Of a stretch of DNA of 32,000 nt, positions 9,056 through 29,181 are shown in pieces; position 1 is the stretch's first letter, and each line of letters opens with the position of its first letter. This stretch comes from Thermococcus kodakarensis KOD1. Lineage in GTDB: Archaea > Methanobacteriota_B > Thermococci > Thermococcales > Thermococcaceae. The notes beneath the pieces were generated by a model. The model ran no database searches, was not told the DNA's origin, and was given only the letters and a program-made list of their open reading frames with translations. The stretch is taken from NCBI RefSeq assembly GCF_000009965.1, contig NC_006624.1:390001-422000 (forward strand), given 5' to 3'. Made by a program: the position numbers and the translations under genes.

Positions 9056-12000
9056 ATGAAAGCCGTATACAGGGAGATGTGCCCAAACTGCTGGGGGAGA
9101 ATATCCGACGAAAGGCTCGTAATGAGGAACCCGTGTGAAGAATGCCTCGACGAACCCGTTCACGCTGACTCCTACTTCCAGCTCGTTTCTGCGGTGAGGA
9201 ATGCGCTTAAACTCAGGGGCACTCTCAAGGAGTGGGAGAAAATATACCAGCTTGAGAACCAGACGAGGGAGATAGAGGAGTTCTTCAAGAAAGCCACAGG
9301 CTTTACGTTCTGGAGCGCCCAGAGGACTTGGGTAAAGAGGCTTCTCAAGGGGAGGAGCTTCTCCATCATAGCGCCTACTGGAATGGGTAAGAGCACCTTT
9401 GGCGCCTTCATGGCCGTCTGGCACGCTCTAAAGGGCAAGAAGAGCTACATAGTAGTCCCAACAACTCCTCTCGTCATCCAGACCGTCAGGAAGATAGAGG
9501 GTATAATGGAGAACGCGAACGCCGACGTCAGGCTCGCCTACTACCACGGGAACCTCAGGAAGAAGGAAAAAGAGGAGATGCTTGAGAGAATCAAAAACGA
9601 GGACTACGACATCCTTGTAACCAGCGCCCAGTGGCTGGCCAGGAACTACGAAGAGGTTCTGAAGGGCAGGCACTTCGACTTCATATTCGTTGACGATGTT
9701 GACGCTTTCCTTAAGGCGAGCAAGAACATAGACCGCTCCCTTTATCTCCTCGGCTTTACGGATGAGATAATCCAGAAGGCCTGGGAAATAATCAGGCTGA
9801 AGAAGCAGATGTCAAGATACCTGAACGGGAACTCAGAGGACAGAAATGAGAAGCTGAACGGGCTTAACAGGGAAATAGAAAAGCTTCAGAGGGAGATAGA
9901 AAAGTTCAAGCGGAAGAACAAGATTGGAATAATGATAATCGCATCTGCCACGGGTTCCGCGAGGGGCGACAGGATAAAGCTCTACCGCGAGCTTCTGGGC
10001 TTTGAAGTCGGAAGCGGAAGGAGCGCCCTTAGGAATGTCGTTGACAGCTACCTCAAGCCAACTAAAGACATTAAGGAGCACGTTGAGGAGCTTCTCACAA
10101 GGCTCGGAAAGGGCGGCCTGATATTCGTCCCAGTTGATCAGGGTCTTGGCTACGCTGAGGAATTAGCTAATTATCTCAGCGAGAAGGGCTTTAAGATAGA
10201 GCTCGTCTCGTCCAAGAACAAGAAGGCCCTTGAGAAATTCGAGAACGGCGAGGCGGACTACCTGATAGGTTCTGCCACCTATTACGGCTCCCTCGTCAGG
10301 GGTATTGACCTACCGCACCTCATACGCTACGCCGTCTTCACGGGCGTTCCGAAGTTCCGCTTTAGTATAGACCTTGAGAGACCAACCATATATCGTGCCC
10401 TAGGCCTGCTCAGCGAGATAATGGACTTCCTCAGTGAGGAAGACAGGAGGCAAGCCGAAAAGCTCCACGCCCGCTTGAGGAGGCTCATAAGGAACATCCC
10501 GCAGTTCGAGCTCCTAAAGATTGAAGAGGCCCTTGCCGAGGGTCTCCCGATAGAAAACGAGTTCCACAACCACGTCCTCGGCGTTTTCCGCGAGCTGGTG
10601 GAGTTCCTGAGGAGGGTTCTCAGAGACGAGGAAGTCCTTAGAAAGCTCGCCGAAGATCCGTTCATAAGCCTGGTCAAGGAAGAGGGCAAGTGGTACATTG
10701 AGATACCCGACGTCAGAACCTACATCCAGGCAACGGGAAGGACGAGCAGGCTCTTCGCGGGAGGAATCACGAAGGGTCTGAGCGTCCTCATAGTGGACAA
10801 CGAGAAGGTCTTCAACGGCCTCGTCAGGCAGATGCGCTGGCGTTTCCAGGAGTTCAAGATGGTTCCATTCGAGGAGCTTGACCTCGATGAGATTCTCAGG
10901 CAGATAGACGAGGACAGAGAGAAGGTCAGGCTCGTTATGGAGGGCAAAATAAGCGCCAAAGTCAAAGACCTCGTCAGGTCTGCCCTCATGATAGTCGAGA
11001 GCCCGAACAAGGCCAGAACTATAGCGAACTTCTTCGGTCAGCCGAGCAAGACGAGGATAGGGGACCTGGTCGCCTACGAGATAAGCGTTGGGGACAGGAT
11101 GCTGACGATTCTGGCCAGCGGAGGTCATATGTTCGACCTCGTCACGAACGAGGGCTATCACGGCGTTCTAATCCAGAACGAGGGTGACATGCTGAAGTTC
11201 ATTCCCGTTTACGACACCCTCAAGAGATGCCGTGACTGCGGCCACCAGTTCGTGGACTGGGAGAAGAAAGGGGTGTGCCCGCGCTGTGGCTCTACTAATG
11301 TCAGGGACGCCCTTGAGAACGTCATTGCTATGCGCGAGATAGCACAGGAAGTTGATGAAATCCTCATAGCGACCGACCCCGATACCGAGGGTGAGAAGAT
11401 AGCCTGGGACATCAGGAACGTCCTCGCCCCGTACACGCCCAACATAAAGCGCATAGAGTTCCACGAGGTAACGAGGCCGGCCATAATGAAGGCCATCCAG
11501 GAGGCGAGAGATGTCAACGAGAACCGCGTCAACGCGCAGATCGTTAGGAGAATCGAGGACAGATGGATAGGCTTCGAGCTGAGCCAGGAGCTCCAGAGGG
11601 TCTTTGAGAGCTACAACCTGTCAGCAGGAAGAGTTCAGACACCGGTTCTCGGCTGGATAATCGAGCGCTATAAGGAGTTCACGGAGAGCGAAGTTTACTT
11701 CCTCGGCCTGACCCTTGAGAACGGCTTACAGGTAACTATTGAACTCGGAAAAGACGGCAAAGACGTAGAGCCGCCTGAATACGTCACCGTCGAGGAAGTC
11801 CAGCTCGAGGAGAGGGAACTCAACCCAGCTCCACCATATACTACGGACGCGATGCTGAAAGATGCTTCGACCTTCCTGAAGCTTTCGGCTCCCGAAACGA
11901 TGAGGCTCGCACAGGATCTCTTCGAGGCAGGTCTCTGCGTCACACCCGATACTCTCGTTAGCCTTGCCGACGGAAGGATCATGGAGATAAAGGATGCGGT

Positions 12001-14191
12001 GGAGAAGTCCGAGGGGAATCTGCTCTCAGTGAACGGCCTTAAGCCAAAAGAAGCAAAAGCCCTCAAGTTCTGGGAGATTGACTGGAACGGGCCTCTTAAG
12101 GTCATCAAGCTCAAAAACGGACACGAAATTAAGGCAACTCCCGACCATGGTCTCCTCGTGATGAGAGAGGGCAAGCTCGGCTGGGTCTCCGCCAAGAACG
12201 TCAGGGAAGGAGACTACGTTGCCTTCGCCTACAACACCGGCCACCGTGGAAGAGATGAATACACGCTCCTCAAACTCATGATAAAGCTCGGAATAACCGA
12301 CGTGATGGTCGAGCTGGACGAGGAGTATTTCAACGAGAAGGTAGCTCCAATCGTCAGGGAGAGGATCTCAACGAGCACCAAGTACAAGTATCTCCGCAGG
12401 CGTGTCCTTCCCCTCTACCTTCTCCAGGAATGGGGGCTTGATGACTACGAGGCCCACGTGAAGTCCCTCTACCGCCAAAGGGCAGGCTCAAAGCCCATAC
12501 CCAACTTCAAACTTGACGGGAGGTTCTGGTACGTCTTCGGCCTCGTCCTTGGCGATGGAACCCTAAGGGACAGCAAGGTCTTGATTTCCCAGACTCCCCT
12601 GAAGGACGTTAAATCCGTACTCGAAGATGTTTTCCCGTTCCTCCGTGTCTTTGAAACGACGAACCAGGTTGGCTTCTCGAACTCAATCATCGCCGAGGTC
12701 TTCAGGAGACTTGGAGCGAGAAAAGGAAAGCTCCACCCGCTCGTGTTTGGACTCCGTGAGGAGTACATCAACGCAATGATCGCAGGCTATTTTGACACGG
12801 ATGGAACTTTCTCCATCCTCAACGACAGGAAAGGGCCGAACTTCAGGGGGATCCTGACTTCAAAGAGGGGCGACGTCCTCAGAATGCTCAGCGTTTACCT
12901 CTACCAGATCGGCATCATGAACTACCTCAGACGGGACGAGCGCACTGGGGTTTGGGACTTGATAATAAGCAACAGGAGCCTCGAAAAGTTCAGGGAGAAA
13001 ATATACCCGTACCTTAGAATTAGAAGGGCGCAGTTTGACGAGGCGTATTCCGTTTACAGGGCATCGCGGAGGGCCTTTGAGGGTGACCTGCTCCCGGTCG
13101 CTCCCGTCTTCGGAAAGCTGAAGTTCAAAAACGGCACCAAGAACAGGATCCTGAAGGAAACTGGAATCGACGTTTGGAACTGGCTCAAACGTCCGGAGGG
13201 AGAGATTCCACGGGACAAACTCTCAAAGGTGCTTGAGTACGCAGAGGAAAGCCCAGAGAAGGAGTTCCTCAAGTCCCTCGTCGAGGCGGGGGTTACCTGG
13301 GTTAAAGTGAAGGGGGTTGAAGAAGAACTTTACACCGGAAAGCTCTATGACTTCACGACGACCACTGAGAACTTCCTCTCCAACGGTGCCGTCTCCCACA
13401 ACTGTACCTACCACAGAACTGACAGTACACACGTCAGCAACACCGGAATAGAGGTCGCGAAGGAATACATAACCCAGGAACTCGGCGAAAAGTACTTCAA
13501 ACCCAGGCCGTGGGGAGAGGAGGGAGCACACGAGGCCATAAGACCCACTAGACCGATAGACACCGGCAGGTTGATGCAGCTCATCCGCGATGGAATAATC
13601 CAGCTCCCGAGGAACCTTACAAGGAATCACTACAGGCTCTACGACATGATATTCAGGCGCTTCATGACGAGCCAGATGACCCCAGCGAAGATACTCTACG
13701 AGAAGGCCGTAATCAACGCTGGCGTCGGAAAGGCCGAGCTTGAAGGCTACGTTGAGATAATCGAGGACGGCTGGACAAGACTGCGCTCGCCGCCGCTCAG
13801 GGAGCTTCCAAAGCTTGAGAAGGGAATGAAGCTCAAGGTGGTTGAGGCAAAGAAGTGGAAGGCTCCAAAGGTTTCCCTCTACACTCAGGGAGACATAATA
13901 GCCCTGATGAAGGAGAGGAAGATAGGAAGACCGTCAACGTACGCCAAGATCGTTGAAACGCTCATGAGAAGAGGTTACGTCGTGGAAACAAAGGGAAGAA
14001 AGAAGCTCCTTCCAACGGAAAAAGGCATCAAAGTCTACCACTACCTCGTCAGCAAGTACAGGGACCTTGTGAGCGAGGAGAGAACGAGGGAACTTGAGGA
14101 AATAATGGACCGCATAGAAGAAGGGATTGAGGATTACATAAAGGTTCTCGGGGAGCTTTATTCGGAAATTCAAAGATACGTTTCGGGTTGA
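9056..14191 (+). CDS. rgy: reverse gyrase (helicase-like domain fused to type IA topoisomerase), interrupted by an intein
   Basis: N-terminal Zn finger CPNCWGR...CEEC. Walker [10 protein letters not shown] and DDVD box. TOPRIM motifs [13 protein letters not shown] and [14 protein letters not shown]. Zn ribbon CRDCGH...CPRCGS. The topo IA active-site motif TYHRTDS is split from LFEAGL by the intein. 1711 aa total, 1222 aa after splicing. Confidence 0.95.
11936..13402 (+). mobile_element. intein (489 aa) with LAGLIDADG homing-endonuclease domain, inside reverse gyrase
   Basis: Junctions are ...[19 protein letters not shown] and ...[15 protein letters not shown]. These give Cys1, a terminal His-Asn and a +1 Cys. 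Block B is IKATPDH. The two LAGLIDADG motifs are [14 protein letters not shown] and [15 protein letters not shown]. Confidence 0.9.
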
Positions 14192-16840: not shown

Positions 16841-18061
16841 ATGATACTCCAGGTCGCTCTTGACCTTACCGATATTGAGCAGGCCATTTCTATAGCTGAG
16901 AAGGCCGCCCGCGGCGGGGCCCACTGGCTTGAAGTAGGCACTCCCCTCATCAAGAAAGAAGGAATGAGGGCAGTAGAGCTCATGAAGAGGCGCTTCCCGG
17001 ACAGGAAGATAGTCGCGGATCTCAAGACAATGGACACCGGTGCCCTCGAGGTCGAGATGGCCGCGAGGCACGGCGCTGATGTTGTTTCTATTCTGGGCGT
17101 TGCAGACGACAAGACCATCAAGGATGCAGTTGAGGTCGCGAGGAGGTATGGAATAAGGGTTATGGTTGACCTGATCGGCGTCAAGGACAAGGTTAAGAGG
17201 GCAAAAGAGCTTGAGAAGATGGGCGTCCACTACATCCTCGTCCACACTGGAATTGACGAGCAGGCCCAGGGCAAGAACCCACTTGAGGACCTTGAGAAGG
17301 TCGTAAAGGCCGTCAAAGTTCCGGTTGCAGTCGCTGGGGGCCTGAATCTCGATACGATACCTAAGGTCATAGAGCTCGGCGCCACGATAATCATCGTGGG
17401 AAGCGCCATAACCAAGGCCAAAGACCCTGAAGAAGTCACCAGAAGGATAATAGACCTCTTCTGGGGCGAGTACATGATGACGATAAGAAAGGCCATGTTC
17501 GACATAACGGACCACATAAGGAGCGTCGCCGAAAACCTCAAGCTCGAACAGGTTAGAGGCCTCGTGGATGCCATGATAGGGGCCAACAAGATATTCATCT
17601 ACGGCGCCGGAAGGAGCGGGCTCGTCGGCAAGGCCTTCGCGATGAGGCTCATGCACCTCGACTTCAACGTCTACGTCGTCGGTGAGACAATCACGCCAGC
17701 ATTCGAGGCAGGGGATTTACTCATAGCCATAAGTGGTTCGGGTGAAACAAAGAGCATAGTGGATGCCGCTCAGATAGCAAAGGAGCAGGGCGGAAAGGTC
17801 GTCGGCATAACCTCGTACGCGGACTCGACACTCGGAAAACTCGCTGACGTTGTCGTTGAAATCCCGGGAAGGACAAAGGCAGACGTCCCCACTGACTACA
17901 TAGCCAGGCAGATGCTCACCCAGTACAAATGGATAGCCCCTATGGGAACTCTTTTCGAGGACTCCACTATGGTCTTCCTTGACGGCATTATAGCACTCCT
18001 CATGGCGACCTTCCAGAAGACCGAAAAGGATATGAAGAGGAAGCACGCGACCCTTGAGTGA
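16841..18061 (+). CDS. hps-phi: bifunctional 3-hexulose-6-phosphate synthase / 6-phospho-3-hexuloisomerase (Hps-Phi fusion, RuMP pathway)
   Basis: The N-terminal half resembles the OMP-decarboxylase/Hps family (MILQVALDL...IVADLKTMDTG...LVHTGIDEQ). The C-terminal half is a SIS domain (IYGAGRSG...ISGSGETKS). The fused 406-aa form is the Thermococcales arrangement. Confidence 0.9.
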   Translation: MILQVALDLTDIEQAISIAEKAARGGAHWLEVGTPLIKKEGMRAVELMKRRFPDRKIVADLKTMDTGALEVEMAARHGADVVSILGVADDKTIKDAVEVARRYGIRVMVDLIGVKDKVKRAKELEKMGVHYILVHTGIDEQAQGKNPLEDLEKVVKAVKVPVAVAGGLNLDTIPKVIELGATIIIVGSAITKAKDPEEVTRRIIDLFWGEYMMTIRKAMFDITDHIRSVAENLKLEQVRGLVDAMIGANKIFIYGAGRSGLVGKAFAMRLMHLDFNVYVVGETITPAFEAGDLLIAISGSGETKSIVDAAQIAKEQGGKVVGITSYADSTLGKLADVVVEIPGRTKADVPTDYIARQMLTQYKWIAPMGTLFEDSTMVFLDGIIALLMATFQKTEKDMKRKHATLE

Positions 18062-21883: not shown

Positions 21884-23299
21884 ATGAGCCGCCAGATGGT
21901 TGGAGCGCTGGTTCTCCTGCTCTTGCTGACGCTGCCCGGAGTCTCCGCCGTTTCCCTGCCGTGGTCAGGGCTTTCCATCTTTGGAGCAAGCTCAGGGGCC
22001 TACCCAATCCGCCTCGACGGCGTTGAACAGACCGGCAACATCGCGGTCGTAACATGGGACGTCCCGCCCAACTGCCTCTCCGGCTACGGCACCGTGTTCA
22101 TCAGCAGGGATGGAAGAACCATCACAGAGCGCGTCAGCCTCGGCCGGCTGAAGCCCTGGGGCAAGAAGGTAGCGGTTTTCCTCAACGTCAGGGAGCCGGT
22201 TTACGTCAAACTGCGCATCACCTCTGGAAACGGAATCTTCATGAGCTCGTGGGTGAAGTTGAGGCCCCAATCCGTACCGAGAGTCTTCTCGACAGGCTAT
22301 ACGACCACTTATTCCTGGGGAGACGGGGAGATAAGGCCGCAGTTCGTCCCAATTCCAGCCATCATCGGGGCAATAATCTCGGTGGGCTTTGCGCTCTGGG
22401 ACGCCTACGATGCCTATAATGCGTGTTCCGACTACGGGGAGGACTCAATAAAGTGCACCGTCGCCGCTGGTTCGGTGTTCGTTTTCAGCCTGGCTATGGA
22501 GGGCGATGAGCTGGTCGGCGTGCTCAGGCACGGTGATGAACTCGTTGAGGTTCCTGGAAAGCTATACAGCACGCTGAAGCGCCTCGACCTCGTTGAGGAG
22601 GTTGGTGATGGAGTCGTCAGGGCCAAGGAGAGGTTCGCCCACATATTCGACGACATAGTAAAGCACGGCGACGATGCCGCAAAGGCCCTCGACGACCTCG
22701 TCAGGGCTGGAGTTTCAAAGGAGGCCGTCGAGGAGACAGTCAAGCACGGCGCGACGATAAAGGAGATAAAGGAAGGAATTGAACGGTCGGAGAGGGCATT
22801 AGAAAGGATAGCAGGTGGAGCGGAAGGAAAACATGTCCTCGGAAAAGTACGGACGTACGACGTGGCCATAGAGAAAGGGAACGAAAAGGAGGGGCTCATT
22901 CACATGCTCCTCAGGCACGTGTGGGGATACGACATGGAAAACGTGGGAAAAACATCCTTCTGGCCGATGGGCCAGAAGATCATCGTGAGCGGTCAGGAGA
23001 AGCAGCTTCCCAGGGTTTTCAGGGATGAGGGGGAGCTGATGGAGTTCCTGAAGGAAGTTGTGGAGAGGGTGAGCAAGGATCCAGAGTACATATCTGAGAA
23101 ATTCTTTAAGAATGGGGTGCCCAACAGGAACTTTGGGATTCCAGTGGATCTTAAGAAGCTTGGAATGCGTGTTGATGGGATTGATGTTGTTCAGCTGGAG
23201 TTTAGGTTCGAGAAGGGTGAATTCGTCCTGAAGACGGCGTATCCTGTTGATGGTTGGGCTGTTGAGACGTTTATTCCTGGTAAGGGTGGCTGGCAGTGA
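21884..23299 (+). CDS. full-length polymorphic-toxin candidate: signal peptide, beta-rich ectodomain, two hydrophobic segments, helical linker, 115-aa swappable C-terminal module (CT1)
   Basis: 471 aa. Signal peptide is MSRQMVGALVLLLLLTLPGVSA. Hydrophobic segments are VPIPAIIGAIISVGFALWDAY (22346-22408) and CTVAAGSVFVFSLAM (22454-22498). Residues 357-471 (nt 22952-23296) recur downstream as start-less copies. Confidence 0.6.
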   Translation: MSRQMVGALVLLLLLTLPGVSAVSLPWSGLSIFGASSGAYPIRLDGVEQTGNIAVVTWDVPPNCLSGYGTVFISRDGRTITERVSLGRLKPWGKKVAVFLNVREPVYVKLRITSGNGIFMSSWVKLRPQSVPRVFSTGYTTTYSWGDGEIRPQFVPIPAIIGAIISVGFALWDAYDAYNACSDYGEDSIKCTVAAGSVFVFSLAMEGDELVGVLRHGDELVEVPGKLYSTLKRLDLVEEVGDGVVRAKERFAHIFDDIVKHGDDAAKALDDLVRAGVSKEAVEETVKHGATIKEIKEGIERSERALERIAGGAEGKHVLGKVRTYDVAIEKGNEKEGLIHMLLRHVWGYDMENVGKTSFWPMGQKIIVSGQEKQLPRVFRDEGELMEFLKEVVERVSKDPEYISEKFFKNGVPNRNFGIPVDLKKLGMRVDGIDVVQLEFRFEKGEFVLKTAYPVDGWAVETFIPGKGGWQ

Positions 23300-23822
23300 G
23301 GTGATACGAATGTGGGCCACCATACAAGGAAAACACTTGACGATAAAAATAGACCTAGATAGGTACATTCCATCTCCAGATCCTTTCTTTTCGATTTTTA
23401 CGATAGGTGACCATTTACTCGTGGGGGCCTGCTGGAAGGGAAAACTCGAAGGAGATGAAAGTGATGTCTACAGAGTTTTTGAGAACTTGTTGACTGCTTG
23501 TTATTACTTTTTACAGCCAGAGCATCCGCACGTTCAGAAACTAACCAGGTTTGAGAAAAAGAATGTGGAAGAGGCAGGATTCAGATTAAAAGGGGAGGAG
23601 GTTGTTGTGTATCAGGGTGTTGAGAGGAACAGTATTTACTACGCTTGCTCTACAGGGAAGACCGCGAGAATTTACTATCACAATGGACTCCTTGAATTCA
23701 CTGATTGTCCAGAATACAAGGGCAAGCACAAGGGTGTCGTTGAGCTCCCGCTTAGAGAGTTCATTGAAGACGTTCTGAAAGTCAGCAAGGAGTACTTGGA
23801 AAAATACGCTCCAATTATTGAG
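22952..23822 (+). repeat. cassette repeat copy A (CT1 plus most of immunity-like 1)
   Basis: Colinear without indels with 24868-25738 (constant offset 1916 nt). Roughly nine positions in ten are identical by eye, not computed. It includes a ~50-nt perfect run, CCCAGGGTTTTCAGGGATGAGGGGGAGCTGATGGAGTTCCTGAAGGAAGT. Confidence 0.8.
23171..23315 (+). repeat. 145-nt perfect direct repeat, copy 1 (3' end of CT1, junction, first codons of the immunity gene)
   Basis: Identical base for base to 26529-26673 on my reading. The flanking similarity extends over 23157-23365 versus 26515-26723 with 5 mismatches. Confidence 0.8.
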
Positions 23823-23921
23823 AAAATCAGGCTGGAGCATGGGGAAAAGCCTGACGACTATGACTTCCTCCAAAAGTTCTATCTGGAAGTTGAGAGACTG
23901 TATAAGGAGAAGTTTGGGTAA
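23310..23921 (+). CDS. immunity-like protein 1 (203 aa), cognate position to CT1
   Basis: The ATG lies 10 nt after the toxin stop, within TGAGGTGATACGAATG (SD spanning the stop). Family motifs are GKHLTIKIDL, VGACWKGK, DCPEYKGKHKGVVELPLREFIEDVLKVSKEYLEKY. The track ORF's first 21 codons are a spurious extension. Confidence 0.6.
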   Translation: MWATIQGKHLTIKIDLDRYIPSPDPFFSIFTIGDHLLVGACWKGKLEGDESDVYRVFENLLTACYYFLQPEHPHVQKLTRFEKKNVEEAGFRLKGEEVVVYQGVERNSIYYACSTGKTARIYYHNGLLEFTDCPEYKGKHKGVVELPLREFIEDVLKVSKEYLEKYAPIIEKIRLEHGEKPDDYDFLQKFYLEVERLYKEKFG

Positions 23922-24258
23922 GAGGATCATCGTGAACGGTCAGGAGAAGCGGTTGCCAAAAGTCTTCAAGAACGAGAAAGAGCCCAGAGAGTTCCTTGAT
24001 GAAGTGTTGAAGAGGGCACTTCAGGAGGAAGAGTACTACACAGAATTTAGGGGACAGAGCTTTGTGAAGCTAAGGGTAAACTTGGATAAGCTTGGGGTGC
24101 ATATAGACGGGATAGATGCGGTAGAGTTCCAGTTCTCGTATAACCAAGCTAAGGGTGCCTATCAACTTATCACAGCGTATCCCTCAAAGGGTAAGAATGT
24201 TTTAGGGTACGTGTGGGACAGAGAAAAACAATCTGGTAAATGGATACGCATGGGGTGA
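23917..24258 (+). pseudogene. orphan toxin C-terminal cassette CT2 (113 codons, no own start or promoter), divergent variant
   Basis: GKRIIVNGQEKRLPKVFKNEKEPREFLDEVLKRA...GIDAVEFQFSYNQAKGAYQLITAYP is colinear with residues ~363-455 of the full-length gene. The tail is different. Homology begins exactly at the stop codon of the preceding gene, and there is no in-frame Met until the last residues. Confidence 0.6.
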
Positions 24259-24263
24259 CTTCA

Positions 24264-24860
24264 ATGAGGTGCAAACTTCGTGGAAAATTTATTGAGGTTG
24301 AAATAGATTTGGAATCCTTTGAGCCAGACCCATTTCCCGGCCGTTTTCCTATTCTTTTTTTGGTGGCTGGGCACGAAGTAGGTGGATACCACAATGAGGG
24401 ATGGCTTGGCGACTCATATGGCCTCTTTCAGGATCTACTCCTCTGTACGAGAGATCTCCTAAAGTGCCCTGAAAGTTGTTTTAACAAAAGGAAAAACGCT
24501 GAGAGCGATGGTTTTAAGTTGTTACCTGATAGCTATGTCTGCGGACCAATACTTGACTTAGATTTTAACACGTATTATCTTGAAAGAAAGGGAGAATTGT
24601 TGCGTTTTCATTTCATAAATGAAGCTCCCAAGTATATTTCTTCGAAGAATTCCCTTCAGGGCACTATCGAACTACCGTTTGGGGCCTTTGTCGCCGATAT
24701 TCTCAAAATAAGCGAGGAGTACCTTGAAAAATGTTTCCCAATAGAAATGGAGACTAAAGCCATGCAATATAACAGATTTACCGAGGAAATTTCTCGGCTT
24801 AGGCAATACTTAGAAAACCTCATACAGGAAATTAAAACAGAACTGGATTTTGGGCATTAA
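24264..24860 (+). CDS. immunity-like protein 2 (198 aa), divergent family member paired with CT2
   Basis: The ATG lies 5 nt after the CT2 stop. MRCKLRGKFIEVEIDL..., YGLFQDLLLC, GTIELPFGAFVADILKISEEYLEKC share the family architecture. AT-rich, about 35% GC in a spot count of 24541-24600. Confidence 0.55.
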   Translation: MRCKLRGKFIEVEIDLESFEPDPFPGRFPILFLVAGHEVGGYHNEGWLGDSYGLFQDLLLCTRDLLKCPESCFNKRKNAESDGFKLLPDSYVCGPILDLDFNTYYLERKGELLRFHFINEAPKYISSKNSLQGTIELPFGAFVADILKISEEYLEKCFPIEMETKAMQYNRFTEEISRLRQYLENLIQEIKTELDFGH

Positions 24861-24861
24861 T

Positions 24862-25215
24862 TGGGAAACATCCTTCTGGCTGATGGGCCAGAAGATCATC
24901 GTGAACGGTCAGGAGAAGCAGTTGCCCAGGGTTTTCAGGGATGAGGGGGAGCTGATGGAGTTCCTGAAGGAAGTCGTGGAAAGAGCTCTCAAGGACCCAG
25001 ATTATCAAAAAGAATTCTTTAATAGACTTGGAGCACCGAAATCAAGCTTTGGGATTCCAGTGGATCTTAAGAAGCTTGGAATGCGTGTTGATGGGGTTGA
25101 TGTTGTTAGGTTGGAGTTCAGGTTCGAGGATGGGAAGTTTGTCCTGGAGACGGCGTATCCTGTTGATGGTTGGGCTGTTGAGACGTTTATTCCTGGGAGA
25201 GGTGGCTGGCAGTGA
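24862..25215 (+). pseudogene. orphan toxin C-terminal cassette CT3 (start-less), about 80% identical to CT1
   Basis: WETSFWLMGQKIIVNGQEKQLPRVFRDEGELMEFLKEVVERALKDPDYQKEFFNRLGAPKSSFGIPVDLKKLGMRVDGVDVVRLEFRFEDGKFVLETAYPVDGWAVETFIPGRGGWQ. In-frame homology to 22952 onward starts at 24868, right after the stop of the preceding gene. The track 'M' is a TTG. Confidence 0.6.
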
Positions 25216-25738
25216 GGTGATACGAATGTGGATCACCATACAAGGAAAACACTTGACGATAAAAATAGACCTAGATAGGTACATTCCATCTCCAGATCCT
25301 TTCTTTTCGATTTTTACGATAGATGACCACATACTCGTGGGAGCCTGCTGGAAGGGAAAACTCGAAGGAGATGAAAGTGATGTCTACAGAGTTTTTGAGA
25401 ACTTGTTAGATGCGTGTTCTTGTCTTTTAGACCCGGAGCATCCGCATGTTCGGGCACTAACCAGGTTTGAGAGAAAGAATGCAGAAGAGGCAGGATTCCG
25501 GTTAAAAGGGGATGAGGTTGTGGTGTATCGGGGGGTTGAGAGGAACAGTATTTACTATGCTTGCTCTACCGGACGGATTGCGAGAATTTATTATCACAAT
25601 GAGCTCCTTGAATTCACAGATTGCCCAGAATACAAGGGCAAGCATAAGGGCGTTGTTGAGCTTTCACTTAAGGAGTTCGTTGAGGACGTTCTGAAAATCA
25701 GCAGGGAATACTTGGAAAAATACGCTTCGATTATTGAT
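24868..25738 (+). repeat. cassette repeat copy B (CT3 plus most of immunity-like 3)
   Basis: Partner of 22952-23822; see that entry. Confidence 0.8.
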
Positions 25739-25876
25739 AGGATTTTGATCGAGAATGAACACAATCCCGGTGATGACTATGAATACCTTTTGAACTTTTA
25801 TCAGGAGGTTAAGAAAATGTACGAGAAACCCAGTTGCGGGAGCTCTAGCTTAAGCAAAAAAGAACATTGGGCGTGA
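25226..25876 (+). CDS. immunity-like protein 3 (216 aa), close paralogue of protein 1
   Basis: It has the same TGAGGTGATACGAATG junction. It is roughly 80% identical to immunity-like 1 by eye, with a different C-terminal tail. The first 66 codons of the track ORF 25028.. are out-of-frame read-through of CT3. Confidence 0.6.
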   Translation: MWITIQGKHLTIKIDLDRYIPSPDPFFSIFTIDDHILVGACWKGKLEGDESDVYRVFENLLDACSCLLDPEHPHVRALTRFERKNAEEAGFRLKGDEVVVYRGVERNSIYYACSTGRIARIYYHNELLEFTDCPEYKGKHKGVVELSLKEFVEDVLKISREYLEKYASIIDRILIENEHNPGDDYEYLLNFYQEVKKMYEKPSCGSSSLSKKEHWA

Positions 25877-25880
25877 TCCC

Positions 25881-26501
25881 ATGAACACGCTCAAATTATC
25901 TGGCAAGCACATCTACATAGAGGCTGACTTAGGGAAATTCTATGGGGGAGCATATCCCTTTCCCCTCATCATGTTACTGGATGACCATGTCATCGTGGGC
26001 ATGTGCTGGAAAAAATGGAGTTCAGGGAAGCTGGTTGGGTCGCCAGGGGACCCATATGGAGTTGTGCAGGATTTACTGGACAGTGTGAGGTTCTTTATGG
26101 TGGCGAAGCCAAGACGGCTCGTTGGTGTTAAGCCGGACACTGTTAGAGAGTACGGATTTCAGGTTGGGGAGGACTCTTCGATTTACTCTGCAACATCGGT
26201 AGCGGACTCAGTCTTCATTTTTCTTGAAAGAAAGAATGATGTAGTGAAAATACATTACTATAACCAGCTTCTCTACGAAACAGATTGCCCGGAATTCAAG
26301 GGAATGGGCAGGGGTACAATTGAATTGCCTTTCTTGGAATTTGTTAATGATGTGCTCGAGATTTCGGAGGGATACCTCAAAAACTATGCAGGTGTCATAG
26401 AACGGATTATGAGAGAGTATGAGGAGGAACCGTATGACCATGATATCCTCTGGAGATGGTATCTGGAAATCAAGGAGGAAATTACAGGCAGGAGGATATG
26501 A
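25881..26501 (+). CDS. immunity-like protein 4 (206 aa), stand-alone divergent member
   Basis: Starts 4 nt after the previous stop with no CT module in front. MNTLKLSGKHIYIEADL, VGMCWKKW, YGVVQDLLDS, DCPEFKGMGRGTIELPFLEFVNDVLEISEGYLKNY. Confidence 0.55.
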   Translation: MNTLKLSGKHIYIEADLGKFYGGAYPFPLIMLLDDHVIVGMCWKKWSSGKLVGSPGDPYGVVQDLLDSVRFFMVAKPRRLVGVKPDTVREYGFQVGEDSSIYSATSVADSVFIFLERKNDVVKIHYYNQLLYETDCPEFKGMGRGTIELPFLEFVNDVLEISEGYLKNYAGVIERIMREYEEEPYDHDILWRWYLEIKEEITGRRI

Positions 26502-26516
26502 ATACATTGTCACTAG

Positions 26517-26657
26517 CTTGGAATACACGTTGATGGGATTGATGTTGTTCAGCTGGAGTTTAGGTTCGAGAAGGGTGAATTCGTCCTGAAGACGGCGTAT
26601 CCTGTTGATGGTTGGGCTGTTGAGACGTTTATTCCTGGTAAGGGTGGCTGGCAGTGA
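26517..26657 (+). pseudogene. truncated toxin C-terminal stump (last 46 codons of CT1)
   Basis: LGIHVDGIDVVQLEFRFEKGEFVLKTAYPVDGWAVETFIPGKGGWQ is preceded by an in-frame TAG at 26514-26516. Positions 26529-26673 are identical to 23171-23315. Confidence 0.75.
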
Positions 26658-26673
26658 GGTGATACGAATGTGG
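26529..26673 (+). repeat. 145-nt perfect direct repeat, copy 2
   Basis: Partner of 23171-23315, offset 3358 nt. Confidence 0.8.
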
Positions 26674-27276
26674 ATCACCATACAAGGAAAACACTTGACG
26701 ATAAAAATAGACCTAGATAGGTATATTCCCTCTCCTTATCCATTTTTTCTGATCTTTGGGATAAAAGATAACCTGATTGTAGGAGCCTGTTGGAAGGGTA
26801 AGCTTGAAGGAGCAGAAACAAACGTTTATGGGGTTCTCCAAGAGCTCCTTATAGCGTGCATTCAGATGCTTAACCCAAAGAGTAGCACTTCAAATTTTGC
26901 CAGAAAGGAAGCGAAGTGGCATGGGTTTGTTCTTAACGAGAACAATCCGTCTTATGAGCTCATTACGTCATCAAATCCATCTAGCATTCTTTACTTTGAA
27001 GCAGATGGGAATATCCTAAAAGTTTACTATTATAATGATCTGCTTGCATATACCAACTGTCGTGAATATGAGAACAGACATAGGGGTGTCGTTGAACTCC
27101 CGCTTAGAGAGTTCGTGGAGGATGTTCTGAAAATCAGCAGAGAGTACTTAGAAAAGTACGCTTCGATTATTGAGAAAATCAGGCTGGAGCATGGGGAAGA
27201 ACCTGACGACTACGATTCCCTCAGGGGGCTCTATCGCGAGGTTGAAAGGTTGTATAGAGAGTCAGGATTCCGCTGA
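26668..27276 (+). CDS. immunity-like protein 5 (202 aa), mosaic member
   Basis: The first ~19 codons are near-identical to proteins 1 and 3. The central ~120 codons diverge. The last ~60 codons are again about 88% identical at nt level to protein 1 (23733-23870 versus 27085-27222, 17 mismatches counted by eye). Confidence 0.6.
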   Translation: MWITIQGKHLTIKIDLDRYIPSPYPFFLIFGIKDNLIVGACWKGKLEGAETNVYGVLQELLIACIQMLNPKSSTSNFARKEAKWHGFVLNENNPSYELITSSNPSSILYFEADGNILKVYYYNDLLAYTNCREYENRHRGVVELPLREFVEDVLKISREYLEKYASIIEKIRLEHGEEPDDYDSLRGLYREVERLYRESGFR

Positions 27277-27326
27277 GGAGCTCTGGGGGTGATTCTGTGA
27301 GCTGGTGGCTCGGAAGTTTAAAGCCC

Positions 27327-27935
27327 ATGAGGCTCGTTGGGAAGCACATAGAAATTGACGTGGACCCCAACGCCCCCACGTGCTTTCCATCTCCTATCCC
27401 GACCCTGATGAGAATTGACAGAAGGCTGATCATCGGCGGAATATTCAAATCCTCGGGATGCACTCCCTTGATGATGGATACAAACCTCCACGGCATGTTC
27501 CAGGACCTTCTCGACCTCTGCATCTCCTTTCTCGACCCCGACTTCGACGAGCAGGGGGAGATGGCGTATCCCAGAAGGGAGGCAAGAAAGTTGGGCTTTA
27601 AAATAGGGGACAGCACAAAGCTCTACCAGACGAGCCTCTTTGTGGACCAAGGGGTTACCACCGTGTTTTTTGAGCTCGTCGGGGAAAGGCTGAGGATTCA
27701 CTACCTCAACGAGCTTCTCGGATGGAGCGACTGCGAGGATGCCAGGAAAACACACAGGGGGACATTCGAGGTTCCCTTTTTGGAGTTCGCGGAGGACGTT
27801 TTAGTGCTCTCTAGGAGGTTCCTAACGGAGGTAGCACCCATTATTGAGGAGGTCTGTCCCGAGCTTGACGATCCCGAGTACCTGTGGAAGCTGTACCTTG
27901 AACTGAACGCAAGGTTGGTGGGGGAGGATGATTAA
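27327..27935 (+). CDS. immunity-like protein 6 (202 aa), GC-rich divergent member
   Basis: MRLVGKHIEIDVD, HGMFQDLLDLC, LGFKIGD, DCEDARKTHRGTFEVPFLEFAEDVLVLSRRFL share the family layout. About 58% GC in a spot count of 27481-27540. The track start 27297 (GTG) is less likely than ATG 27327. Confidence 0.55.
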   Translation: MRLVGKHIEIDVDPNAPTCFPSPIPTLMRIDRRLIIGGIFKSSGCTPLMMDTNLHGMFQDLLDLCISFLDPDFDEQGEMAYPRREARKLGFKIGDSTKLYQTSLFVDQGVTTVFFELVGERLRIHYLNELLGWSDCEDARKTHRGTFEVPFLEFAEDVLVLSRRFLTEVAPIIEEVCPELDDPEYLWKLYLELNARLVGEDD

Positions 27936-29181
27936 GTGGGCGAAAACCTACTGGAAGGGCGGAGTGGCATCTATCTCCCTCACACGGGGCGGAGACATGA
28001 TTGCTGCGGGGGTGGCGGAAAAGGAGCTGCATTTCTTGGCAGAATATGGCCCACGCAGGGTAATCCTCAGTGGGGGCTTCGTGGCAAGGCTCGGGAGAGA
28101 TGGAAGCCTCAAGTGGTTTAGAATCATCCCGAAGGTGACCATAACCGATGCTGAAGTTACTGGTAACGGGGAAGTGGTATTGGTGGGGGTAACGAGGGAA
28201 CCCCGCTCCATGATGCTGGGGGTGATCCTCAAATTCGATGGTAATGGAAACTTCCTGTGGGGCAGGAGGTTTAACGGAGGTGTGCTTGATAGCTTCAATG
28301 CCCTCACGACGACAAGAGACGGTGGAACTGTAGTTGTCGGCGAAACAAGAAGCTTCGGCGCGGGGGTCAGCGACGCCCTGGTCCTAAGGCTCGACGGAGA
28401 TGGAAACTTTGTCTGGTGGGGAACCTACGGCGGCAAGCTGTGGGACGGGGCAGAGTCCGTAGCTATCGACAGAGAAGGGAGGATAGTGGTTGCGGGCTAC
28501 ACATACAGCTTCAGTGAAGGCCCATCGAACGCGTGGCTCCTCTGGCTCGATAACGAGGGTGATGTTCTTCTGGGGAAGACGTACGGAACGGAGAGCCTGG
28601 AAAAGGCCGTTAAAATCGCGCTGACTCCTGAGGGTGACCCCGTGGTGGTCGGGAAAACCTACGTTCCAATAAAGTCCCGCCACGATGCCTGGGCCATCCG
28701 CCTGGACGGCGAGGGGGAACCTGAGTGGGGGCTGAGATTTCCTGGGATGGAAGCCGTCGACATTGCGGTAAGCCCCAGCGGTGATCTGGTTGTCGCCATG
28801 GAAGATTTTGAGCTGGCCGGAATTGGCTCCACAGGAGAACCCTTGTGGGGAGAAAGGCTAAAGCTGAAAATGGACGGTGGACTGAGAACAGTTTTGGCGG
28901 ATGAACACGTTCTCGTGGGAGGTGGAGCTCTCTGGGGAATCGGAGAAGCGTTCATCGCATCAATTCAGCCCGAAGGGGAACCTCCTGCTGTCCTTGACTG
29001 GAATCCTGAGGTGAAAGAAAGCGAGTGCACGGTTTTCAGGGCGTACGCTAACGGCGAGGCCTGCTTTAAGGCCACTCCCGTCGGAAGGTTCACCGAAGTG
29101 AGGCTAAAACCCGTGGAGTTCAAGCCAGATGTATTCAGCAGCTTCGAGGAGTTCGCAGAAAGCAGTTACGTTCGTCGTTGA
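27928..29181 (+). CDS. cytoplasmic 7-blade beta-propeller repeat protein with a ~70-aa C-terminal domain
   Basis: About seven 45-50-aa repeats with the pattern W..(T)YGG...D.a.sva...dG.ivvaG.T.Sf....dawll.lD..G...W. No signal peptide. The ATG overlaps the stop of immunity-like 6 by 8 nt (ATGATTAA). Confidence 0.65.
   Translation: MIKWAKTYWKGGVASISLTRGGDMIAAGVAEKELHFLAEYGPRRVILSGGFVARLGRDGSLKWFRIIPKVTITDAEVTGNGEVVLVGVTREPRSMMLGVILKFDGNGNFLWGRRFNGGVLDSFNALTTTRDGGTVVVGETRSFGAGVSDALVLRLDGDGNFVWWGTYGGKLWDGAESVAIDREGRIVVAGYTYSFSEGPSNAWLLWLDNEGDVLLGKTYGTESLEKAVKIALTPEGDPVVVGKTYVPIKSRHDAWAIRLDGEGEPEWGLRFPGMEAVDIAVSPSGDLVVAMEDFELAGIGSTGEPLWGERLKLKMDGGLRTVLADEHVLVGGGALWGIGEAFIASIQPEGEPPAVLDWNPEVKESECTVFRAYANGEACFKATPVGRFTEVRLKPVEFKPDVFSSFEEFAESSYVRR

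Follow-up and report, generated by a model that had tools for sequence, protein, structure and literature searches.

In contact-dependent growth inhibition (CDI) systems, a long exported or anchored protein ends in a variable C-terminal toxin with the cognate immunity gene directly downstream, and in E. coli EC93 and EC869 and in Yersinia these loci also hold arrays of 5′-truncated C-terminal (CT)/immunity pairs that keep a short conserved stretch for in-frame fusion. Here we describe a locus with the same organisation in the archaeon Thermococcus kodakarensis KOD1, found in a 32,000-nucleotide (nt) stretch of contig NC_006624.1 (positions 390,001 to 422,000 of the forward strand; hereafter the window, whose own numbering is used throughout). 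One gene for a 471-amino-acid (aa) protein is accompanied on the + strand by six immunity-like paralogues (~200-216 aa) interleaved with copies of its CT: besides the resident copy (CT1) there are two intact 5′-truncated orphans (CT2 and CT3) and one 46-codon 3′ fragment. We consider it likely that this is a polymorphic toxin/immunity locus whose cassettes are exchanged at a point inside the toxin domain. A conserved export or anchoring N-terminal part joined to a variable C-terminal part, a co-varying immunity gene downstream and arrays of orphan cassettes, the features by which a polymorphic toxin system (PTS) is recognised (Zhang/Aravind 2012), are all present. A first-pass annotation of the window, made from the letters alone, had read the locus as such an array, and the co-variation of tip and immunity gene and the orphan arrays of other genomes agree with it.

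The KOD1 CT also appears related to the RNase A/EndoU toxins of the CdiA-CT(Ykris) type. Unlike CDI, however, the locus is archaeal and has no VENN motif, no CdiB or type V secretion system and no filamentous haemagglutinin repeats; the scaffold is only ~320 aa long and carries a transmembrane (TM) helix, the tips all belong to one homologous domain, and the junction lies inside the toxin domain, past the putative catalytic histidines, rather than before the whole CT. Membership in the CDI family was rejected on the missing VENN, the absence of CDI Pfam domains and the unrelated neighbouring genes. In the Rhs loci of Salmonella and E. coli, orphan pairs likewise share a conserved junction, and deletion of the intervening DNA installs an orphan tip. 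The Rhs motif PxxxxDPxGL, however, is an autoproteolytic site at the boundary of shell and toxin, whereas the KOD1 motif is part of the enzyme domain, and the 471-aa protein was set apart from the Rhs/YD family because it has neither an RHS/YD Pfam match nor PxxxxDPxGL. Colicins E2-E9 and the S pyocins share with KOD1 the joint diversification of toxin and immunity domains, with fixed catalytic residues and recombination at conserved flanks; they differ in being plasmid-borne and released by lysis, without orphan arrays, and in their folds, an HNH DNase with a four-helix Im protein as against an alpha/beta domain with a ~205-aa two-repeat beta4-alpha protein. VARTIG, a hypervariable locus specific to Thermococcales, resembles a PTS in its organisation, and shuffling between species affects the C-terminal part of its first gene, but it encodes large immunoglobulin (Ig)-domain proteins (arCOG07710) with membrane proteins behind them and contains no toxin that can be recognised (PMC8416519). 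The KOD1 locus differs in having a 471-aa protein with an enzyme-like C-terminal domain followed by cytoplasmic proteins, and assignment to VARTIG was rejected since there is no Ig-domain match and the downstream proteins have no TM segments.

Archaeal polymorphic toxin systems with C-terminal RNase or DNase toxins, orphan cassettes and adjacent immunity genes have reportedly been predicted in a 2019 mBio study by Makarova and colleagues, which both PMC8416519 and PMC7297114 cite. The searchable literature, which did not include that study, yielded no account of the junction anatomy, the two-arm cassette, the co-variation of tip and immunity gene or the differences between KOD1 and its sister strain KS-1 set out below. 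We know of no polymorphic toxin system from a hyperthermophilic archaeon that has been tested experimentally. The only paper on archaeal contact-dependent antagonism found in our literature searches describes a haloarchaeal type VI-like system (PMC11566945). The features of the long gene and of the first three CT/immunity modules are as follows, each with the evidence for it.

21884-23299, + strand: full-length 471-aa gene (open reading frame list, BAD84671.1, 14 homologues, hydropathy)
21884-21949, + strand: predicted Sec-type signal peptide, aa 1-22, ending ...LPGVSA (hydropathy; n-h-c layout as read from the sequence)
22343-22408, + strand: single strong TM helix, aa 154-175, with PQF just before it (hydropathy)
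22835-23296, + strand: candidate C-terminal toxin domain, ~aa 318-471 (distant homologues, AlphaFold2 model, weak PF14436 matches, published motifs)
22901-22918, + strand: invariant H340-x3-R344-H345, the putative catalytic histidine pair (alignment columns)
22952-23060, + strand: junction block TSFWPMGQKIIVSGQEKQLPRVFRDEGELMEFLKEVVER, aa 357-395 (alignments, orphan 5′ ends, nt conservation, GC content at third codon positions, GC3)
22978-23003, + strand: 26-nt core, copy 1 (exact pattern count)
23060-23299, + strand: variable tip of the resident CT, CT1 (segment typing, CT1/CT3 comparison)
23234-23245, + strand: invariant T451-A-Y-P454 strand within the CT1 tip (alignment columns T, P, G, V)
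23310-23921, + strand: immunity-like gene 1, 203 aa, BAD84672.1 (database match, family alignment, AlphaFold2)
23720-23810, + strand: conserved C-terminal block of immunity-like gene 1, the 3′ homology arm (nt conservation profile)
23917-24258, + strand: orphan CT2, gamma-type tip, 5′-truncated at GKRII (tblastn, stop-to-stop translation)
23925-23950, + strand: 26-nt core, copy 2 (exact pattern count)
24264-24860, + strand: immunity-like gene 2, cognate of the CT2-type tip (79-91% identity across loci)
24868-25215, + strand: orphan CT3, alpha-type, from TSFWLMGQ (83% aa identity to CT1)
24894-24919, + strand: 26-nt core, copy 3 (exact pattern count)
25226-25876, + strand: immunity-like gene 3 (79% aa identity to immunity-like gene 1)

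The long protein is an exact match to KOD1 BAD84671.1, and its 14 full-length homologues all come from Thermococcales. Its signal-peptide segment (Kyte-Doolittle peak 2.37 at aa 5-23) is followed by a conserved ~125-aa domain and then by the TM helix (Kyte-Doolittle KD19 maximum 2.11), a second hydrophobic stretch at aa 192-205 staying below the threshold; beyond the helix the protein continues with (V)KHG(A)T(I)K-type helical repeats and finishes with the ~150-aa C-terminal domain. The PQF before the helix resembles the PGF of archaeosortase signals, but it is internal and has acidic residues after it. Between loci the scaffold is 57-95% identical, and the tips fall into at least 8 types.

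The C-terminal domain extends across the junction. An exhaustive profile search of 1.84 billion cluster representatives returned only 30 relatives, in which the domain also sits on other scaffolds: behind a periplasmic-binding-protein domain, behind a signal peptide only, and on acidic, haloarchaeal-looking proteins. A tblastn search of plasmids found it at the end of a 1340-aa TSP3-repeat protein on the Halorussus caseinilyticus plasmid NZ_CP119811.1 (L011 2347-6894), the classical tip position of a polymorphic toxin; the small 173-aa gene that follows is unrelated, and hhalign detected no relationship between it and the immunity profile. A second place in this plasmid record also matches. 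When the distant members are aligned, the domain starts ~35 residues before the IIVNGQEK-type motif, so that orphan tips encode just its C-terminal two-thirds. G332, H340, R344, H345, G348, P361 and P454 are invariant (KOD1 numbering) and T357, G363 and G432 nearly so. The Halorussus protein, overall only 30% identical, reads WIHITARHIIG...TSFWPLGQKV...LP...SYP, and T-S-F-W-P-(L/M)-G-Q-K is kept in distant homologues including this haloarchaeal plasmid toxin, which makes it an ancient feature conserved for the domain's own function. The first-pass annotation had likened the junction motif to VENN, that is, to a boundary ahead of the toxin. That comparison fails, as the motif lies inside the toxin domain, 12-17 residues past the invariant H340-x3-R344-H345, and its presence in the haloarchaeal toxin indicates that conservation at the protein level is mainly functional.

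The residues that are kept point to an enzyme family. Mushegian et al. describe a toxin of Thermococcus sp. EXT12c (WP_099209516) with a 22-residue signal peptide that matches both CdiA-CT(Ykris) (PDB 5e3e) and PF14436 (PMC7297114). The prokaryotic RNase A/EndoU superfamily (PF18431, PF14436) is characterised by a pair of histidines near the N-terminus, spaced 5-6 residues apart within a helix-turn-strand element, and by a C-terminal strand with an aromatic-Pro pair, and in CdiA-CT(Ykris) a Thr (T276) touches both histidines (PMC7297114). In the AlphaFold2 model of the KOD1 CT (mean predicted local distance difference test score, pLDDT, 79), aa 337-343 form a helix and aa 446-456 a long strand; H340 and H345, invariant in all homologues including the distant ones, fall in or just after the helix, and T451-A-Y-P454, with its Thr and Pro invariant or nearly so, falls in the strand. 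Both elements fit the published description of the superfamily (PMC7297114). PF14436, a bacterial EndoU nuclease domain of polymorphic toxins, is matched weakly by two distant members of the family, at E 1.6e-3 (19.3 bits) and 6.5e-3 (17.3 bits) where the cut-off is 25.3 bits, and both matches have the same register. Judged by these motifs, the C-terminal domain is probably a prokaryotic RNase A/EndoU-type ribonuclease.

The partner proteins differ from the long protein in lacking a signal peptide or TM segment (KD19 maximum <=1.29). Immunity-like protein 1, 100% identical to KOD1 BAD84672.1, is modelled with a mean pLDDT of 95.8 and a predicted template-modelling score (pTM) of 0.92 as two beta4-alpha repeats and a long C-terminal helical hairpin; the nearest PDB folds are repeats I-II of PUR-alpha, a weak PUR-alpha/Whirly-like resemblance (probability up to 0.97, TM-score 0.3-0.46). 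Such a resemblance might hint at nucleic-acid mimicry by the immunity-like protein. Its gene follows the long gene after 10 nt and has a GGTGAT ribosome-binding site. In the family alignment the N-terminal two-thirds are variable and a segment ...GVVELPLKEFVEDVLKISREYLEKYAP... is highly conserved; the conserved 3′ block carries ELPLKEFVEDVLKISREYLEKY. In T. eurythermalis (L004 9424-10632) the full-length toxin is followed by a 402-aa protein that looks like two immunity-like units in tandem and gives two separate tblastn segments to immunity-like gene 4.

Comparison across ten Thermococcales loci, KOD1 and nine further ones in which tips and immunity genes were mapped by tblastn and stop-to-stop translation, carries the case for exchange. 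The loci occupy at least 4 different chromosomal positions. Arrays of orphans and immunity genes occur in KOD1, T. eurythermalis, T. sp. 21S7, T. indicus and a T. henrietii-like contig (L004, L006, L007 and L008 besides KOD1); degraded fragments occur in T. sp. JdF3 and Pyrococcus sp. NA2 (L002 and L003). Tip type follows the downstream immunity gene, not the scaffold: among 15 modules, tip identity and the N-terminal identity of the immunity protein are correlated (Mantel rho 0.58, reached by 0 of 2000 permutations), whereas scaffold and tip identity are not (rho 0.05, reached by 739 of 2000). Alternative tips attached to the scaffold in this region are found in other strains: JdF3 has the CT2-type tip on its full-length gene, whereas KOD1, T. 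eurythermalis and T. indicus have it as an orphan. Behind each CT2-type tip comes an immunity gene 79-91% identical to immunity-like gene 2 (91% in JdF3; frameshifted in T. indicus, L008). Other strains thus do carry alternative tips here, and the motif occurs at several loci with variable sequence downstream, the opposite of two outcomes that the first-pass annotation had named as fatal to its proposal.

Junction and tip have separate histories. Of the ten pairs whose junctions (51-57 nt) are >=90% identical in nt, eight are <70% identical in the distal tip. Conversely, the gamma-type tips, although 91-95% identical, sit on three junction alleles that share only 68-78% identity: IIVNGQEK (KOD1), IVVNGQAK (T. 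indicus) and IVDPKTGRVV (JdF3). At synonymous sites a KOD1-specific allele, not present in the nine other loci, is common to all KOD1 copies, which suggests exchange between the resident gene and the orphans. Mean pairwise nt identity is high at 22910-23060, low over the variable stretch 23090-23660 and high again at 23720-23810. GC3 is 0.70-0.81 in scaffold and junction and 0.40-0.57 in the tips and immunity genes 1-5, dropping from 0.81 to 0.54 where the junction block ends on its 3′ side; in immunity gene 6 it is again a host-like 0.70. Together, the two-arm conservation profile and the GC3 step define a cassette, made up of the distal tip and the variable part of the immunity gene, between two homology arms. 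Immunity gene 6 and the gene downstream of it have GC3 values of 0.62-0.70, and the cassettes seem drawn from a lower-GC pool.

The claim that the motif is the recombination point stands in part. Tips have been exchanged here across strains, but the motif is one crossover zone among several, others lying at ~aa 299-336, in the CT 'HVDGI' block, at ~aa 451 and in the immunity 3′ block. Typing of the domain in six segments places reassortment to either side of the motif, with further cases at aa 405/406 and 451/452, and the motif allele has a four-gamete pattern on each side. It is more apt to see the junction as a functional part of the toxin domain that probably doubles as a 5′ homology arm, with a 3′ counterpart in the immunity gene.

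In five other genomes, the majority of orphan tips have their 5′ end at TxFW or GQKI, as expected from the proposal that orphans start at the junction. By 5′ end, four start at TxFW, four at GQKI, two are longer (starting before GLLHAFLRHVWGY) and two shorter (starting after LPKVF). The nine intact orphans are all 5′-truncated, most of them starting within the first 10 codons of the junction block. Because H-x3-R-H lies upstream of the junction, most orphans are without the histidine pair (seven of the nine intact ones; the exceptions are the two longer, L006 10874 and L008 10644) and so cannot be toxic alone. CT2, which lacks the pair and whose homologous part provides no start codon, is 86-95% identical to tips of L002 (full-length), L004 and L008. 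GenBank carries orphan tips as separate ~110-aa genes starting at the Met of a WPMGQ motif (BAD84675.1, 110 aa, 24883-25215; P0113, P0116, P0119); no obvious GGTGA-type ribosome-binding site precedes the BAD84675.1 ATG in KOD1. Type-1-family immunity genes elsewhere (L007 9376-10384, L004 12828-13458, L006 11170-12232) end in ...KKFGSENRRA*, and the end of their coding sequence runs, in another frame, across the GQKIVEPK codons with which the next orphan starts, so that the junction DNA is dual-coding.

Within KOD1, the core GATCATCGTGA(G/A)CGGTCAGGAGAAGC occurs exactly 3 times, always on the + strand, with 0 expected from 100 shuffles. The first-pass annotation had found all three; it placed copy 2 exactly and copies 1 and 3 each 1 nt too low. 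The ~50-nt perfect run that it reported between CT1 and CT3 downstream of the core lies at 23009-23058, and further perfect runs of 49, 49, 31, 89 and 65 nt follow deeper in CT and immunity gene. Modules 1 and 3 are ~87% identical over ~970 nt and lie 1916 bp apart, start to start. Homology of CT3 to the full-length gene starts at ~22948/24864, at TSFW, and that of CT2 at ~23917, at the (L)GKRII codons. The two orphan starts are where they had been placed: CT2 overlaps the stop codon of immunity-like gene 1 (TAA at 23919-23921), and the TSFW codon of CT3 falls 8 nt past the stop of immunity-like gene 2 (24860). The predicted deletions are also arithmetically sound, 24868 less 22952 giving 1916 bp for CT3 and 23926 less 22979 giving 947 bp for CT2, and both fusions stay in the frame of the 471-aa gene. 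The exact 26-mer was not found in the nine homologous loci of other Thermococcales, so that the three-fold nt identity is specific to the KOD1 genome. With ~970 nt in common at ~87% identity, including perfect runs as long as 89 nt, CT1 and CT3 could cross over at any point of the unit.

The remaining immunity-like genes and the CT fragment of the array lie further downstream.

25881-26501, + strand: immunity-like gene 4, BAD84677.1, with no CT ahead of it (tblastn, database match)
26517-26657, + strand: CT fragment 4, the last 46 codons of an alpha-type tip (tblastn 96% over aa 426-471; repeat family)
26668-27276, + strand: immunity-like gene 5, BAD84678.1, 202 aa (database match, KS-1 comparison)
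27297-27935, + strand: immunity-like gene 6, BAD84679.1 (database match, GC3 0.70)

Strain-to-strain differences at the locus are seen in Thermococcus sp. JCM 11816/KS-1, which is ~97% identical to KOD1 in the flanks. KS-1 has one module where KOD1 has modules 1-3, and the difference is exactly 1916 bp. Its sequence follows module 1 to ~23792 and then module 3 for 91 consecutive distinguishing sites from 23811/25727. A difference of the length that had been predicted thus separates the two assemblies, but the crossover is at 23792-23811, in the immunity gene and not at the junction; as a consequence, the CT1 tip is kept, and CT2, immunity gene 2 and CT3 are missing. Further along, ~26535-27085 (CT fragment 4 and the variable part of immunity gene 5) is occupied by a different cassette in KS-1 between flanks that are 93-100% identical, the left boundary of the replacement lying in the CT 'HVDGI' block and the right one in the immunity 3′ arm. 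The full-length gene of KS-1 also shows CT3-like patches in a CT1-like tip (L010 8541-8560 and 8873-8876), FWLMGQ for FWPMGQ and PGRGGWQ for PGKGGWQ, which look like short gene-conversion tracts.

From the observed anatomy, co-variation, mosaic structure and strain-to-strain cassette differences we infer a toxin with RNase activity that is neutralised by the immunity-like proteins, is exported or otherwise delivered, and can be switched within a culture. The specificity cassette would consist of the outer toxin domain and the N-terminal part of the ~205-aa cytoplasmic immunity protein, both hypervariable and co-varying, and would extend from where the junction block ends on its 3′ side to roughly two-thirds of the way into the next gene. 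The junction block would be its 5′ arm and the ELPLKEFVEDVLKISREYLEKY block of the immunity gene its 3′ arm. Homologous recombination in these arms and in smaller conserved islands has probably replaced cassettes repeatedly, the exchange partner being either incoming DNA or another copy in the array. T. kodakarensis KOD1 is naturally competent, with routine gene-replacement genetics. Repeated replacement would leave a trail of displaced tips, each 5′-truncated at the junction and with its own immunity gene, and recombination at the junction could re-arm the scaffold with a stored tip, the matching immunity gene directly behind it. The retained immunity genes probably also guard against the toxins of neighbours.

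Several points weigh against this proposal. The first concern the junction: the conservation of its amino acids has a simpler cause in the enzyme itself and would need no recombination-based one, and the CT1/CT2 core, with only 11 + 14 nt of perfect identity (longest run 14 nt), is a poor substrate for homologous recombination, so that an intragenomic swap to CT2 by this route should be rare. CT3, 79-83% identical to CT1, is hardly a different tip, and at 83% identity a swap may leave specificity unchanged. More generally, all tips are variants of one domain, 40-90% identical, not unrelated toxins, and a swap might alter specificity only, or nothing. Five predicted chimeras of the full-length gene with CT2 or CT3 had no exact match among ~15 billion public proteins, a look-up with little power because consensus assemblies hide subpopulations. 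The KS-1 evidence is limited in that the crossover is off the junction and that KS-1 is a frameshift-rich draft, in which the 1916-bp difference could be an assembly collapse of the repeat.

The assignment of fold and family is weak as well. The KOD1 protein has no match in Pfam, and the distant members stay below the PF14436 gathering score. Foldseek gave no significant match of the CT model in the PDB (best E 0.26; the EndoU protein Nsp15 at rank 43, E 2.5) or in BFVD, and sequence-profile searches of the PDB with the full and the trimmed CT alignment gave spurious helical-repeat or weak matches, 5e3e and 5hkq not being found. In a set of 5.8 billion proteins the CT profile reached only further Thermococcales orphans and no Pfam-annotated bridge to EndoU. 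Finally, the predicted topology is awkward. With a signal peptide and one TM helix the long protein would be a type I membrane protein, its toxin domain cytoplasmic in the producer, which is hard to square with a secreted toxin, and no secretion machinery is encoded near the locus.

Among other explanations the one that survives best, which we regard as possible though unlikely, takes the orphans as displacement debris and the immunity genes as a stockpile kept by selection, with the motif maintained for fold and active site and recombination incidental. It accounts readily for TSFWP(L/M)GQK in the haloarchaeal toxin and in all distant homologues, for the scatter of breakpoints over several conserved islands, for the KS-1 indel that left the tip unchanged, for the short perfect identity in the CT1/CT2 core and for the state of the arrays, in which ~6 of 15 orphan tips are visibly degraded and most immunity genes are intact. 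Intact orphans are nevertheless under constraint. The ratio of non-synonymous to synonymous substitution rates (dN/dS) of gamma-type tips is 0.12-0.23, orphan against orphan included (0.13-0.23 for CT2), which is the range of the cognate immunity genes (0.12-0.18 for immunity-like gene 2). Synonymous divergence (dS) is 0.49 for the CT1/CT3 tip pair and 0.47 for immunity genes 1 and 3, so the CT1/CT3 duplication is old, not recent, yet the junction block is 93-100% identical. Low dN/dS and a near-identical junction despite high dS argue against pure decay and for continued or recurrent use. The KOD1-specific allele in all three copies, including a CT2 type that bears other alleles elsewhere, and the same tip type resident in one species and orphan in others speak the same way. 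This explanation and the preferred one, exchange of cassettes that are re-used, differ mainly over selected re-use of orphans, not over anatomy.

That the locus is instead a self/non-self identity or adhesion system, like Ids of Proteus or VARTIG, with a variable C-terminal domain that binds a matching partner, we hold to be improbable. An enzyme is indicated by H-x3-R-H and T-x-Y-P, which stay invariant over long distances, by the occurrence of the same domain at the end of the 1340-aa secreted-type Halorussus protein, and by the reported connection between a Thermococcus toxin and CdiA-CT(Ykris)/EndoU (PMC7297114), and the partners have neither signal peptide nor TM segment (KD19 <=1.29). 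An identity system would fit tips that are homologous variants co-varying with a homologous partner, the lack of any toxin family at curated threshold or significant fold match, and the presence in Thermococcales of another hypervariable module whose function is unknown (PMC8416519).

At least as improbable, in our judgement, is an intracellular toxin-antitoxin or abortive-infection system, in which the ectodomain senses virus attachment or envelope damage and a tethered cytoplasmic RNase, freed from its antitoxin, kills or arrests its own cell. The predicted topology, with an RNase-like domain in the cell's own cytoplasm beside a cytoplasmic inhibitor, is what such a system would have, and so is the tight coupling of the two genes (10-nt spacing, GGTGAT site); but orphan arrays, tips that co-vary with their inhibitors and exchange irrespective of scaffold are hallmarks of inter-strain conflict rather than of antiviral sensors, distant homologues carry the domain at the end of large secreted-type proteins, and PADLOC gave no match at the locus. 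A recent tandem duplication in which recombination played no role, the 26-mer being shared by descent, is very improbable: the ~87% identity of modules 1 and 3 over ~970 nt and their 1916-bp spacing would suit it, but it is contradicted by the dS values of 0.49 and 0.47 beside a 93-100% identical junction, by a CT2 of different type with its closest relatives in other species, by the KS-1 indel and cassette replacement, and by the mosaic pattern and cross-species data.

If the locus is a polymorphic toxin system, its predicted topology raises the question of how a toxin would be delivered by an archaeon without known toxin secretion systems, which we find the most interesting point. Thermococcales are known to make membrane vesicles and to undergo transient cell fusion. 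The toxin domain might reach competitors by either route, the ectodomain acting as a targeting or fusion module and the RNase then facing the recipient cytoplasm; combined with intradomain exchange of an immunity-specifying shell, the catalytic His being kept on the scaffold, this proposal is speculative and on balance doubtful. If true, it would be a new delivery route for polymorphic toxins. With the exchange point inside the enzyme, a fixed half on the scaffold and a replaceable half would together make up the catalytic centre, and a two-arm cassette with one arm in the toxin gene and the other in the immunity gene would be a variation on the bacterial theme. KOD1 would bring the toxin/immunity shuffling that has been described in bacteria into a genetically tractable archaeon; because it is competent and open to gene replacement, toxicity, cognate immunity, tip swapping and delivery are directly testable.

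In scans of the locus proteins against Pfam, NCBIfam and PADLOC nothing reached threshold; six of the proteins had no match at E <=0.1 in PADLOC-DB, which covers known anti-phage defence, and a search of a phage collection gave no match. Counting from the Hps-Phi fusion gene at 16841-18061 as TK0475, the locus would span ~TK0482-TK0491, the long gene probably being TK0482 and immunity-like gene 1 presumably TK0483. The tags TK0482-TK0488 had no mention in the searchable literature. Immunity-like gene 6 is always paired with a downstream 417-aa gene, which it overlaps by 8 nt (window 27297-29181) and whose product has weak matches to beta-propeller repeats (DUF5122, delta-60, SBBP). The pair is kept in the syntenic loci L001, L005 and L008, and in JdF3 (L002 10258-12192) the two are fused as one 635-aa product. 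Elsewhere in the window, at 9056-14191, a 1711-aa reverse gyrase-like open reading frame contains a large insertion that is bounded by C...SHNC, includes homing-endonuclease-like sequence and is probably an intein.

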